Shown: positions 28,168 through 36,356, counted from the stretch's first letter. The stretch: DNA of 64,000 nucleotides from Candidatus Brocadiia bacterium (GCA_046538415.1 JBKHIY010000009.1:7642-71641); one strand, 5' to 3'. Notes: a model not told the origin generated them from the sequence alone. Numbers and translations are program-made.

Positions 28168-28629
28168 TCAGCGGTGGATATCCATGAAGCGAGGCTGCGG
28201 CTGGGGCTCGTCGGCGGTGGAGCGGTGCATCTCGGTGCCCCGCTGGATGTGGCCCAGCTCCTCTTCCACTTCGCCGTGGCACTGGAGGAGGAGCTGCTCG
28301 TTGCGCTGCTCCTGGGCCATGATGCTTTCGATGGTGGCCAGGATGGCGTCGAGGAGGGCGTTGAGGCGCTCGCGCTGCGGGCCGGGGACGGCTTCGCCCC
28401 ACCATTGGCGCTTGAGGGGCTCGATGTCGCTCTCGATGCTGGCCAGGGCGCGGAGGAGCTGGTCCTTGCGCTCGAAGAGGGCGGCGCAGCGGTCCACGTC
28501 GCCATGGTCTGCCAGCAGGGCCCCCTGCTCCTCGGAGAGGGCCAGGAGGGACTGGTAGATCTCCGCCTCGGTCCTGTAGCTGGCGATGAGGCGTGCGGCC
28601 GCGTCGCTCTCGCTTCCTGTGCCTGCCAT
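28168..28629 (-). CDS. FlgN-like helical protein (paralog of the flgN at 47918)
   Basis: ORF 28168..28629. All-helical Q/E/L-rich pattern (YRTEAEIYQSLLALSEEQGALL..FERKDQLLRAL..NEQLLL) resembling the FlgN family. Weak call. Confidence 0.4.
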   Translation of the reverse strand: MAGTGSESDAAARLIASYRTEAEIYQSLLALSEEQGALLADHGDVDRCAALFERKDQLLRALASIESDIEPLKRQWWGEAVPGPQRERLNALLDAILATIESIMAQEQRNEQLLLQCHGEVEEELGHIQRGTEMHRSTADEPQPQPRFMDIHR

Positions 28630-28633
28630 TGGT

Positions 28634-29296
28634 TCACTCTCCTGTGGAGGACTGGAGGCGCTCCCAGCGCTTTTCCCATTGCGCCGTCTTCAGCGTCCAG
28701 GCCACGTGGCCTTTGCACCAGGGGTTGTCGGGGTAGTCCTGCATGAGGGTCTGGAAATGCTCGATCGCCGCGTCGTAGAGGCCCAGGCGGCGGCAGCAGT
28801 TGCCCGCCTGGAGGAGTGCCCAGATGCGGTCGCCGTCTTCGAGTCCCTCCCGCCCCGCCAGGGCCTCGTAGAGAGCTCGCGCCCGGGCGTAGCGGCCCAG
28901 GCGGTAGAGCACGTCGGCGGCGGCCATCGAGGGGCGGCGGAGGAGCGGCGAGGAGTCCTCGCCGCCCTGGCGGGCCCCGTCCTGTGTCTTGGGCTTCTCC
29001 TTGTCCCCCCCCTCGGGCTTGGGCGCGTCCCCGGCGCCCGGGGGGCCGGACGGAGGCTTCTGGGGCGTCGCCGTATGCGCGGCGGCTTCCAGCTTCTCCA
29101 GCTCGGCCCTCATGCGGGCCAGGCTGGCCTCCTCGGCGGCGAGCCGCTCGGCGAGCGAGGGAGCCTGGCCTTCGGGGCGGGCCGCGCCGACGGGCTCCTC
29201 GGCCTGCTTGCGGAGCTCGGCGCCAATGGGAGCCGCGAGGAGCGTCAGGGCGGCGAAGACGACTGGCGCTCGGGGGAATCTGCCGAGGGGGGTCAT
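28634..29296 (-). CDS. secreted small TPR-like protein
   Basis: Inner part of ORF 28634..30664. ATG 29296 overlaps the upstream stop (ATGA). A signal-like N-terminus and a charged linker are followed by LYRLGRYARARALYEAL..AGNCCRRLGLYDAAIEHFQTLMQDYPDNPW. Confidence 0.65.
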   Translation of the reverse strand: MTPLGRFPRAPVVFAALTLLAAPIGAELRKQAEEPVGAARPEGQAPSLAERLAAEEASLARMRAELEKLEAAAHTATPQKPPSGPPGAGDAPKPEGGDKEKPKTQDGARQGGEDSSPLLRRPSMAAADVLYRLGRYARARALYEALAGREGLEDGDRIWALLQAGNCCRRLGLYDAAIEHFQTLMQDYPDNPWCKGHVAWTLKTAQWEKRWERLQSSTGE

Positions 29297-34838: not shown

Positions 34839-36254
34839 TCAGGCGTTGGCCAGTCCGTATTCCCGGATCTTGTTGGCCAGGGTGGTTCGGTGGATGCCCA
34901 GGATGCTGGCGGCCTGGGTGCGCTGCCACATGGTTTCGTTGAGAACTCGGAGGATGTGGCGTCGTTCGACGGCGGCGATGGTCTTCTCGTCCTCGTCCCC
35001 ATCCTCCTGGCACAGTGCCGAGAGCTCGGGGGCGGGTTTCTGCGAGCCGCCATTCCGAGGGGGCTCGACGACCTTTCCCGCGTCCAGGCGGAGGATGCGT
35101 GGCGTCACGACGTCGCCGGTCTCGAGGATCACGCAGCTCTCGATGACGTTCTTGAGTTCCCGCACGTTTCCCGGCCAGGGGTATGCGAGGAGGAGCTTCT
35201 CGGCTTCCGGGGAGAAGCCCTCGATGCGGCGGTCGAACTGGGCGTTGAACTGGGCGAGAAAGTGCTTGGCCAGGGGCAGAATGTCGTCCTTGCGCTCCCG
35301 CAGGGGCGGGGTGTGGATGGTGACCACCTTGAGGCGGAAGAACAGGTCGTGGCGGAAGGAGCCCTCGCGCACCCGCTCGGCGAGGTCGCGGTTGGTGGAG
35401 GCGATGACTCGGACGTCGACCTCGATGTTGCCCGTGCCGCCCACGCGCATGAAGCGCTTGTCCTGGAGCACTCGGAGGAGCTTGCTCTGGAGCTCGTAGC
35501 CCATCTCGCCGATCTCGTCGAGGAAGATGGTGCCCCCGTCGGCGGCCTCGAAGAGTCCGATCTTGCCCGTGGCCGCGGCCCCGGTGAAGGCCCCCTGCTC
35601 GTAGCCGAAGAGCTCGGCCTCCAGGAGGGTCTCGGTGAGGGCGGCGCAGTTGACGGCCACGAAGGGCTTCTCGGCGCGGCCGCTGGTGTTGTGGATGGCC
35701 TGGGCGATCAGCTCCTTGCCCGTGCCGCTTTCGCCCTGGATGAGCACGGTGGTGCTGGCGGAGCGGCTGAGCTGCTTGATGGTGCGGTAGACCTGTCGCA
35801 TGGCGGGGCTGCGCCCGAGGAGCATCTCGGAGCCGTCGGGGCCGAGGTGGCGCAGCTCGGGTCGGAAGTGCATCACCTCTCGCCGCAGCGGGCAGCGCTC
35901 GAGGGCCCTGCCCACCCGCTGGACCATCTCGTCGAGCTCGAAGGGCTTCTGGATGAAGTCGCTGGCGCCGCCCTTCATGGCGGCCACCGCGGTCTCCACG
36001 CTGCCGTAGCCGGTCATGGCGATCACGGGCACCGTGCCGTCCCGCTGGCGGGCCTCGACGATGAAGCTCAGCCCGTCCATCTCCGGCATCCGCAGGTCCA
36101 CGATCACCAGGTCGGGCACCTGGCGGTCGAGCTGCTCGAGGCCCTGGCGGGCGGAGGAGGCCACGTGGACCTCGTGGCCCTCGCGGCTCAGCCGCCGCTT
36201 GAGCGAGTAGCGCACTCCCGAATCGTCGTCTACGATCAGGATGACTGCGTCCAT
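34839..36254 (-). CDS. sigma-54-dependent response regulator (NtrC family), EBP2
   Basis: Inner part of ORF 34839..36602. ATG 36254 (MDAVILIVDDD) lies 6 nt after GAGG. Motifs are DLVIVDLRMPEMDG, GESGTGKE, GAFTGA and a C-terminal HTH (QRTQAASILGIHRTTLANKI). Confidence 0.9.
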   Translation of the reverse strand: MDAVILIVDDDSGVRYSLKRRLSREGHEVHVASSARQGLEQLDRQVPDLVIVDLRMPEMDGLSFIVEARQRDGTVPVIAMTGYGSVETAVAAMKGGASDFIQKPFELDEMVQRVGRALERCPLRREVMHFRPELRHLGPDGSEMLLGRSPAMRQVYRTIKQLSRSASTTVLIQGESGTGKELIAQAIHNTSGRAEKPFVAVNCAALTETLLEAELFGYEQGAFTGAAATGKIGLFEAADGGTIFLDEIGEMGYELQSKLLRVLQDKRFMRVGGTGNIEVDVRVIASTNRDLAERVREGSFRHDLFFRLKVVTIHTPPLRERKDDILPLAKHFLAQFNAQFDRRIEGFSPEAEKLLLAYPWPGNVRELKNVIESCVILETGDVVTPRILRLDAGKVVEPPRNGGSQKPAPELSALCQEDGDEDEKTIAAVERRHILRVLNETMWQRTQAASILGIHRTTLANKIREYGLANA

Positions 36255-36340
36255 CCGCATCCTCGATACTGAGAGGGTCGAAGCCGCTGGCTCAGGGGAA
36301 GATTTCCTGCGCCGCCCGTGCGAGACGGCGCGCAGCAATC

Positions 36341-36356
36341 GCAAAGCCTGTGCCAG
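36341..36356 (-). promoter_or_regulatory. sigma-54 -24/-12 promoter (consensus-perfect) upstream of EBP2
   Basis: Minus strand reads cTGGCAC-aggct-TTGCg, about 87 nt upstream of ATG 36254. Confidence 0.7.

Follow-up and report, generated by a model that had tools for sequence, protein, structure and literature searches.

A sigma-54-type regulatory gene block with a putative partner switch and envelope TPR genes in a planctomycete flagellar cluster

Why would a flagellar gene cluster interrupt its structural genes with a run of kinases, activators, an antagonist of anti-sigma factors, and exported repeat proteins? The question is raised by a 64,000-nucleotide stretch of DNA from a Candidatus Brocadiia bacterium (GCA_046538415.1 JBKHIY010000009.1:7642-71641; hereafter the window), in which ten closely packed minus-strand genes (25470-36260) are bounded by fliS and flgB. 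A preliminary description of the window proposed that these genes form an undescribed checkpoint. In that proposal, periplasmic tetratricopeptide repeat (TPR) proteins sense assembly and one of them, spanning the membrane, relays the state of assembly to a STAS/RsbW-type partner switch that sets sigma-54 or sigma-28 output. To our knowledge, flagellar gene control in Planctomycetota is essentially unstudied, and our literature search on planctomycete flagellar regulation or partner switching found nothing relevant. Here we establish the gene content, domains and promoters of the block, its conservation, and its modular loss in related loci. The reading that we favour, with moderate confidence, is that the ten genes make up one regulatory operon, driven by sigma-54 and belonging to the flagellar regulon, in a narrow clade of uncultured Planctomycetota. 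This operon would combine a FleQ/FleSR-like sigma-54 cascade, an HsbR/HsbA-like switch, lineage-specific periplasmic TPR proteins and a FlgN paralog.

Layout, promoters and activators of the block

We called genes by picking open reading frames (ORFs) with the help of GC content at third codon positions (GC3), translated them, and assigned domains with Pfam. From fliS to flgB, the block encodes the activator EBP2, the histidine kinase HK2, a fusion of a receiver, a PP2C-like domain and an RsbW-type domain, a STAS protein, three TPR proteins (TPR366, TPR579 and TPR220), a FlgN-like protein, the kinase PAS-HK1 and the activator EBP1. On translation, the gene order and overlaps given in the preliminary description proved exact. 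The fusion and STAS genes overlap by 17 nt (32513-32529) and the STAS and TPR366 genes by 8 nt (32122-32129), while ATGA overlaps join TPR366 to TPR579 (31029-31032) and TPR579 to TPR220 (29293-29296). The remaining intergenic gaps are at most 22 nt; HK2 necessarily starts with GTG at 34822, which leaves 16 nt to EBP2, and the 6-nt gap between HK2 and the fusion is identical in four loci. Neither a minus-strand terminator-like site nor an internal promoter-like site was found inside the block, and one minus-strand terminator-like site lies just upstream of the EBP2 promoter. These tight junctions had been taken to argue for co-translation of the cytoplasmic and periplasmic parts; they support membership of one operon, and not a physical coupling of the proteins.

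A sigma-54-type −24/−12 promoter (TGGCACaggctTTGCg, with the form TGGCAC-N5-TTGC) lies on the minus strand at 36340-36355, about 80 nt upstream of EBP2. A second sigma-54-type promoter (cGGCAtggcatTTGCa; 25341-25356, minus strand) is found about 85 nt upstream of flgB (24888-25256, minus strand), the first gene of the series flgB-flgC-fliE-fliF-fliG-fliH-fliI-fliJ. Over the whole window, counts of sigma-54 and sigma-28 consensus matches show no excess over shuffled sequences at two mismatches, so the promoter calls rest on position and on conservation across loci. In an alignment of five otherwise diverged fliS-EBP2 intergenic regions, GGCAC-N5-TTGC is invariant, and in an alignment of the EBP1-flgB intergenic region the flgB promoter forms a conserved island in four loci. 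Both sigma-54 promoters of the preliminary description are thus borne out by elements conserved in relatives.

Upstream of the EBP2 promoter, the fliS-EBP2 intergenic region also contains a perfect palindrome, TGTACG-N6-CGTACA (36618-36635). It is kept in four related loci, with a compensatory change to TGTTCG...CGAACG in one of them (L002). The palindrome is a candidate enhancer for a sigma-54 activator dimer. We also considered it as a general upstream activating site, but the window's single copy gives no ground for extending that role to other operons.

The activators and histidine kinases of the block have the domains first attributed to them, according to Pfam. EBP2 (34839-36260, minus strand) is an NtrC-type activator with REC, Sigma54_activat (AAA+) and HTH_8 domains. 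Its receiver is canonical (DDD, D56, T and K; Response_reg, 1.1e-30), the GAFTGA motif is present, and its identity across related loci is 68-76%. HK2 (33833-34822, minus strand) is a minimal soluble histidine kinase consisting of HisKA and HATPase_c (DHp and CA) domains only. Its N-terminal 100 or so residues are variable and hold no recognised domain, and neither Pfam nor a hydrophobicity analysis detected a further domain or a hydrophobic segment in HK2, in keeping with the original view of a soluble kinase that has no sensor domain. PAS-HK1 (26859-28145, minus strand) is a soluble PAS-HisKA-HATPase kinase similar to FleS/FlrB. EBP1 (25470-26852, minus strand) is an NtrC-type sigma-54 activator of REC-AAA-HTH architecture, similar to FleR/FlrC; its receiver is canonical, and its AAA+ motif reads GSFTGA. 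All signalling proteins of the block are soluble. Across the ten proteins, the one NCBIfam model to score above its cutoff was a generic YbgF-type TPR model, and the FlgR and FlbD models fell far short of theirs.

Two activators and a PAS kinase in the interval between fliS and the rod/MS-ring genes recall FleQ-FleS-FleR of Pseudomonas and FlrA-FlrB-FlrC of Vibrio. As in these cascades, early structural operons have promoters of sigma-54 type, and the flagellin gene has one of sigma-28 type. HK2 in turn resembles FlgS, the soluble kinase without a sensor domain in the FlgS/FlgR pair of Campylobacter and Helicobacter. Unlike FleQ and FlrA, EBP2 has a phosphorylatable receiver, its own kinase and its own sigma-54 promoter; the non-phosphorylated N-terminal domain typical of FleQ was not found in EBP2, which has the canonical Response_reg domain instead. 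The block also differs from FleQ/FleSR in the six extra genes that separate its two tiers. We propose that EBP2 (with HK2) and PAS-HK1/EBP1 constitute a two-tier sigma-54 cascade in the position of fleQ-fleS-fleR or flrA-flrB-flrC. Phosphorylated EBP2 would activate its own operon from the promoter at 36340-36355, probably via the palindrome, leading to production of HK1 and EBP1, and phosphorylated EBP1 would fire the flgB promoter.

The receiver-kinase fusion and its proposed STAS partner

Between the two tiers lies a putative partner switch. The fusion (32513-33826, minus strand) consists of a REC domain, a PP2C-like middle region (about residues 125-310) and a GHKL kinase/anti-sigma domain of RsbW/SpoIIAB type, and Pfam confirms the proposed receiver and RsbW-like domains (Response_reg, 6.5e-31; HATPase_c_2, 2.1e-24). 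Fifteen orthologues show no variation in the boxes of the GHKL domain, namely the N box (E340, N344, H348; E-x3-N-A-x2-H), G1 (D375, G377, G379; D-x-G-x-G) and G2 (G400, R401, G402; G-R-G). Because of this invariance, the domain is probably active, both as a kinase and as a binder.

The receiver of the window's fusion has all residues of a phosphorylatable type (D8-D9, D52, T80, K102). In 6 of the 15 orthologues (P0004, P0005, P0008, P0012, P0013 and P0014), position 52 carries Glu and the acidic pair is without its second Asp, which suggests a subclade of pseudo-receivers that are independent of phosphorylation and possibly phosphomimetic. Phosphotransfer from HK2 to the fusion therefore cannot be general. 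The preliminary description's notion of a receiver-gated switch suits the protein in the window and does not extend to all of its relatives.

The identity of the middle region was harder to establish. Residues 121-317 gave no SpoIIE or PP2C match in Pfam at E ≤ 10, and a profile of the middle-domain family matched no PDB sequences. Against 1.84 billion representative sequences, the same profile recovered five members of the clade and nothing else credible, with later matches being of low complexity. In an AlphaFold2 model of the fusion (predicted local distance difference test score, pLDDT, 74), the middle region has the layout beta-beta-beta-alpha-alpha-beta5-alpha-beta-alpha-beta. The best Foldseek match to the model is Pseudomonas aeruginosa RssB (REC plus PP2C; 1.9e-17 over 388 columns), and Escherichia coli RssB is also among the best matches; structures that match the REC domain only score about 1e-9 over about 118 columns. 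Because the RssB match spans both REC and the middle region, beyond the reach of these REC-only matches, the model points to a pseudo-PP2C domain at the level of fold and not of sequence.

It had been suggested that the PP2C-like domain has lost its metal-binding Asp residues. The strings on which this suggestion was based, AAEPAAGA and VAASAEA, are indeed present, and in an alignment by eye the positions expected to read DxxGHG and TDG are occupied by AAEPAAG and VAAS and vary among orthologues. What could not be upheld is a PP2C identity recognisable from sequence; the fold, by way of RssB, does support it. E. coli RssB uses an inactive PP2C-like domain for protein binding. RssB differs from the fusion in having no GHKL domain and no STAS partner, and the NCBIfam RssB models hit only the fusion's receiver, scoring 83 and 69 bits where their cutoffs are 700 and 329.

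Full-length relatives of the fusion are rare: about 19 clusters, at 46-63% identity, among 5.8 billion proteins, all of them metagenomic. The window's fusion protein itself is 100% identical to MFP4055860.1, from a metagenome-assembled genome of a 'Candidatus Brocadiia bacterium' (Planctomycetota). A scan of GTDB genomes with the fusion alignment yielded a sole orthologue, that of locus L006. We rejected two sets of matches as relatives. Apparently full-length matches in Pirellulales are REC-HATPase_c_2 proteins of about 310 residues that have no middle domain, and matches in Clostridia and Acidobacteria are SpoIIAB/RsbW-like domains only.

The STAS protein (32122-32529, minus strand) is an anti-sigma-factor antagonist whose domain, as predicted, is confirmed by Pfam (7e-15), and its best matches are the structures of SpoIIAA and RsbV. 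Ten orthologues share an unvarying serine, Ser54, which belongs to the motif Y-[VAI]-S-[AG]-x-A-[LV]-G.

Is such a switch without precedent in flagellar control, as the preliminary description had claimed? That part of its novelty claim is contradicted by Pseudomonas, in which HsbR, a REC-PP2C-kinase/anti-sigma protein, and HsbA, a STAS protein, control FlgM/FliA (PMC5085249, PMC6482189). Unphosphorylated HsbA binds FlgM and thereby releases FliA (PMC6482189, PMC5085249). The hsbAR-hptB genes lie in a conserved Pseudomonas flagellar cluster, and in P. putida they are co-transcribed with fliK...flhB (bioRxiv 10.1101/2021.08.29.457346). Like HsbR/HsbA (P. aeruginosa, P. putida) and CrsR/CrsA (Shewanella oneidensis), the block has the domain order receiver, PP2C-type, GHKL, with the STAS gene adjacent, and like the P. 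putida genes it is sited within a flagellar cluster. The differences are considerable. The host belongs to the Planctomycetota and not to the Proteobacteria, and family-level matches are confined to the REC and HATPase_c_2 domains, with no detectable sequence orthology. Unlike that of HsbR, the PP2C-like domain of the block is unrecognisable by sequence and lacks the presumed metal-ligand Asp residues, so that no phosphatase arm is expected. The fusion gene precedes the STAS gene, and a dedicated minimal histidine kinase stands ahead of both instead of an Hpt protein and hybrid kinases. The STAS serine is offset by one residue in alignments, and some orthologues of the fusion have a Glu pseudo-receiver.

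We infer the probable phosphotransfer pairs of the block, the target of its STAS protein, and the roles of its TPR proteins and FlgN paralog. The fusion and STAS protein would act as a switch of the HsbR/HsbA (CrsR/CrsA) type, in which the GHKL domain binds and probably phosphorylates Ser54 of STAS. HK2 would be the likely phosphodonor wherever the fusion's receiver is still phosphorylatable. The PP2C-like domain is predicted to be catalytically dead and may serve docking only. The output of the switch would most likely be the late, sigma-28-dependent class (flagellin). A sigma-28 (FliA)-type promoter, TTAAC-N14-GCCGATA (42236-42261, minus strand), lies upstream of the flagellin gene and is kept in four loci as TCAAC-N14-GCCGATAC. 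Because this conserved promoter precedes flagellin, a FliA branch on which a switch could act is apparently present. The switch could reach it by either of two routes: free STAS protein may, like HsbA with FlgM, sequester an anti-sigma factor, or sigma-28 may be held directly by the RsbW-like domain.

The second route can be taken further, to a circuit of the SpoIIAB/RsbW or CrsR type in which the GHKL domain is itself the anti-sigma-28 factor, STAS frees sigma-28, and FlgM has no part. The kinship of sigma-28, a group-3 sigma factor, with sigma-F and sigma-B speaks for such a circuit. NCBIfam's anti-sigma F factor model TIGR01925 also hits the HATPase_c_2 domain, with 66 bits (E=2.4e-18), below the 135-bit cutoff, and the equivalent GHKL domain of CrsR binds RpoS directly (PMC6482189). 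The sigma-28-type promoter of the flagellin gene and the failure to find FlgM in the 46-kb flagellar cluster point the same way, although FlgM is small and poorly conserved and could lie elsewhere. Two lineages that have lost the kinase (L080 and L077, described below) keep an intact STAS gene, which would be unexpected if STAS acted only on the kinase. On balance, we assign this circuit a rather low probability.

Envelope proteins, related loci and separable modules

If the switch is to be coupled to the cell envelope, the TPR proteins must provide the connection. Pfam confirms TPR domains in all three of the proteins for which they had been proposed. TPR366 (31029-32129, minus strand) is the only protein of the block with an internal hydrophobic segment, and it appears to be a bitopic membrane protein with one transmembrane segment at about residues 155-177. 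Its acidic N-terminal tail is predicted to be cytoplasmic and its TPR domain periplasmic. The tail has 43 Asp/Glu and 26 Pro among 150 residues, a composition that is conserved, and carries a single invariant short helix motif, ER-EAI-EIL-EL, at about residues 60-80. TPR579 (29293-31032, minus strand) is exported, with a signal-like hydrophobic N-terminus. In its AlphaFold2 model (pLDDT 84), residues 26-56 form a long helix, residues 79-167 a small alpha/beta domain and residues 177-569 about 11 TPR hairpins, and Foldseek matches the model only to generic TPR superhelices, with OGT and designed TPRs at the top. The STN domain that the preliminary description had placed in this protein found no support: STN (PF07660) gave no Pfam match at E ≤ 10 in the N-terminal 180 residues, and the model has just the small alpha/beta domain there. 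TPR220 (28634-29296, minus strand) is a small exported TPR protein with a hydrophobic N-terminus.

Exported or anchored TPR-type proteins encoded with flagellar genes are also known elsewhere. PflA/PflB (Campylobacterota), FlcA (Borrelia) and MotX (Vibrio) are periplasmic TPR/SLR flagellar scaffold proteins, and the likeness of the block's TPR proteins to them is one of resemblance only. The FlcA_CTERM model scored 18 bits against a cutoff of 300, Foldseek gave no specific homology to the known scaffolds, and NCBIfam matched only generic YbgF/CpoB-type repeats. We suspect that the TPR trio serves flagellar assembly or scaffolding in the periplasm and is specific to this lineage; it would be co-expressed with the regulators and not dependent on the switch.

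The relatives of the block (numbered loci) bear directly on this point. L002/L003 and L004 have the complete order fliS / EBP2-HK2-fusion-STAS-TPR-TPR-TPR-FlgN-like-HK1-EBP1 / flgB, and L079 shares it from the fusion onward, where its contig begins. The preliminary description had suggested searching related genomes for this gene order beside flgB, and it is conserved in several contigs. The block's proteins are 45-76% identical across L002/3, L004, L079 and L080. Other loci have only parts of it. In L076, HK2, the fusion and STAS are all missing, and 57 nt separate EBP2 from the TPR trio, which the FlgN-like gene and HK1 follow. In L080, HK2 directly overlaps STAS and the fusion is absent; in L077/78 the fusion is reduced to a 152-residue receiver, with STAS intact in L077; both lineages keep the TPRs. 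L001 and L006 show the reverse, with the switch kept and the TPR trio deleted, and the gap in L001 still holds a recognisable remnant of the TPR366 N-terminus and transmembrane segment.

Because a TPR trio without a switch, a switch without TPRs and a STAS gene without a kinase all occur, the switch and the TPR trio vary independently and are separable modules, probably not parts of one wired checkpoint. The most direct support for a checkpoint comes from the gene order: in the window the STAS and TPR genes overlap (8 nt and two ATGA junctions), and the order STAS-TPR-TPR-TPR recurs in L002/3, L004, L079, L080, L077 and L074. The cytoplasmic tail of TPR366, with its invariant helix motif, could also serve as a docking site. 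These features are outweighed by the pattern of loss. L076 has the whole trio, TPR366 motif included, without HK2, fusion or STAS; L001 and L006 have the switch without TPRs, with remnants that indicate deletion; and L001 lost the TPRs together with structural genes. Pfam detects no STN or other signalling domain in the N-terminal 180 residues of TPR579. Co-occurrence across L076, L001/L006, L080 and L077/78 does not support the claim that the switch is wired to TPR/STN proteins, and independent losses disfavour an envelope-to-switch checkpoint. Such a checkpoint could operate in genomes with the full block, though we consider it unlikely.

The gene that varies least, apart from the activators, is that of the FlgN-like protein (28168-28629, minus strand), which is present in every variant locus. 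The assignment first made from sequence stands above the PF05130 threshold, with 37.4 bits against a cutoff of 30.5. The window's canonical FlgN (47918-48418) lies beside flgK and scores 74.7 bits, and BLASTP finds no relationship between the two (E=0.32). By sequence, the paralog does not appear to be an orthologue of the FlgK/FlgL chaperone. It is restricted to the clade, is 54-60% identical among its members, and carries the motifs IEPLKRRWW and QEQRNEQLLL. The TPRs are lost along with structural genes, and the FlgN paralog is retained along with regulators. In our favoured reading it would be a regulatory partner of the HK1/EBP1 tier and not the FlgK/L chaperone.

In L081, a distant relative, a TPR gene (746 aa), a FlgN-like gene (31% identical) and a PAS-HK gene also stand together. 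Because this adjacency persists both there and in L076, which has no switch, the association of TPR, FlgN-like and PAS-HK genes is older than the switch. One could go further and regard the TPRs, FlgN paralog and PAS-HK1/EBP1 as an older unit that is itself a new flagellar assembly checkpoint, to which the switch is a later addition. TPR366 would then report envelope-stage assembly through its conserved cytoplasmic helix, and the FlrBC-like kinase would be gated by the FlgN paralog, in its free or its cargo-loaded form. We hold this to be improbable.

Locus L001 (JGI Ga0115863_1000034, ~2400-15400) raises a further possibility. In addition to the TPR trio, it is without the flagellin gene, fliD, HK1 and the genes from flgB to fliN, and its EBP1 is joined directly to a PilZ gene. 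It keeps FlgN, FliW, CsrA, FliS, EBP2, EBP1, HK2, the fusion, STAS and the FlgN paralog, so that regulators appear to outlive structural genes or to be re-used. Could the switch be a decaying or repurposed relic, or govern something other than assembly, such as a motile-sessile or cyclic di-GMP (c-di-GMP) decision? A precedent exists in phosphorylated HsbA, which activates the diguanylate cyclase HsbD (PMC5085249). The degenerate PP2C domain, the D-to-E change in six of 15 receivers, the repeated partial or whole loss of the fusion, the persistence of the switch in L001, and the PilZ and HD-GYP-type genes that flank the window's cluster are all compatible with it. However, about 25 middle-domain positions and the kinase motifs are invariant over 45-63% identity, indicating purifying selection, and the fusion gene is always found in the interval between fliS and the rod genes. 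Of the readings considered, this is the one to which we give least credence.

Returning to the reading that we favour, a sigma-54 cascade with an HsbR/HsbA-like switch and co-expressed TPR proteins, several observations weigh against it. Ser54 aligns one residue before S58 of SpoIIAA, which corresponds to S56 of HsbA, and the S58 column is Ala or Gly in our phmmer and MAFFT alignments. The function of STAS cannot depend solely on the fusion kinase, because the kinase-less lineages L080 and L077 retain STAS. The Glu phospho-acceptor in 6/15 fusions counts against general phosphotransfer from HK2 to the fusion, and a dead PP2C domain leaves no evident phosphatase to reset the switch. Neither FlgM nor FliA, on which the switch is proposed to act, turned up in Pfam scans of about 55 ORFs of the window. 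The TPR366 motif, shared with the switch-less L076, would fit a signalling role over a purely structural one. Finally, all related sequences are metagenomic, and their contigs are often cut.

The surrounding cluster and its wider meaning

The block is set in a flagellar supercluster that, by Pfam scans, occupies about 46 kb of the window, whose GC content is 72%. The minus-strand genes begin with flgF/G, flgA, flgH, flgI, a rod-binding (FlgJ-like) gene, FlgN, flgK, flgL, fliW and csrA, and continue with flagellin, a small ORF, fliD and fliS. The ten-gene block follows, then flgB, flgC, fliE, fliF, fliG, fliH, fliI and fliJ, and lastly an unknown gene, motA, motB, fliL, fliM (14042-15114) and fliN (13617-14045). 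On the plus strand are a gene with a FliN domain (376 aa), fliK, flgD and flgE. The same scans found no flhA/B or fliPQR in the window, as they found no fliA or flgM.

Several features of the cluster lie outside the block. The plus-strand FliN-domain protein (54100-55230), which has the domain at its C-terminus and a FliY-like size, is an extra one, encoded ahead of fliK, flgD and flgE. The ORF between fliJ and motA (18063-18854, minus strand; 263 aa) has a strong coding GC3 signal and no Pfam match; L079 has a 269-aa gene, cut by the end of the locus, at the matching position after fliJ, also with no Pfam match on record. In the interval between csrA and flagellin, a divergent MerR-family gene (42549-42818, plus strand) and an ORF of about 320 aa (43214-44182, plus strand) are found in every related locus (the equivalents in L001-L005). 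The larger gene has a weak HTH_36 match in relatives only, with none in the window. They make up an additional pair of regulators that is conserved within the flagellar cluster.

The flagellin 5′ leader (41997-42260) is conserved across four loci and has GGA motifs both in a hairpin-like element, GGGTA(T/A)GGAAACCCG, and in the Shine-Dalgarno region, CAAGGAGGA. Nearby are fliW (44101-44586) and csrA (within 43902-44297). Feedback among FliW, CsrA and flagellin has been described in Bacillus and Campylobacter, and the leader motifs together with fliW and csrA fit such a loop.

Just downstream of fliN, on the minus strand, are PilZ-domain and HD-GYP-type (HD_5) genes (9196-11371). These neighbours and the EBP1-PilZ junction of L001 suggest a c-di-GMP input to the motility locus. 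On the other side of the cluster, the sole perfect match to TGGCAC-N5-TTGCW in the window (60104-60119, plus strand) lies about 280 nt upstream of Poly_export/SLBB and Wzz-like polysaccharide export genes (60402-62986). Sigma-54 may also drive this exopolysaccharide locus beside the flagellar cluster, and a Poly_export gene flanks L001 too.

What does the locus mean for flagellar control in this clade? It presents a sigma-54/sigma-28 hierarchy laid out as in polar-flagellated Proteobacteria. Into this cluster a partner switch has been recruited, apparently independently of Pseudomonas; its PP2C domain, predicted to be dead, would make it a kinase-only version. Since the organisms are uncultured, the near-term value of the locus is comparative and biochemical. 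Its natural variants, with a switch but no TPRs, TPRs but no switch, STAS but no kinase, or Glu pseudo-receivers, are ready-made genetic dissections. The FlgN paralog and the envelope TPR proteins, constantly paired with an FlrBC-like kinase, in turn offer a lead on the signal that activates such flagellar kinases.

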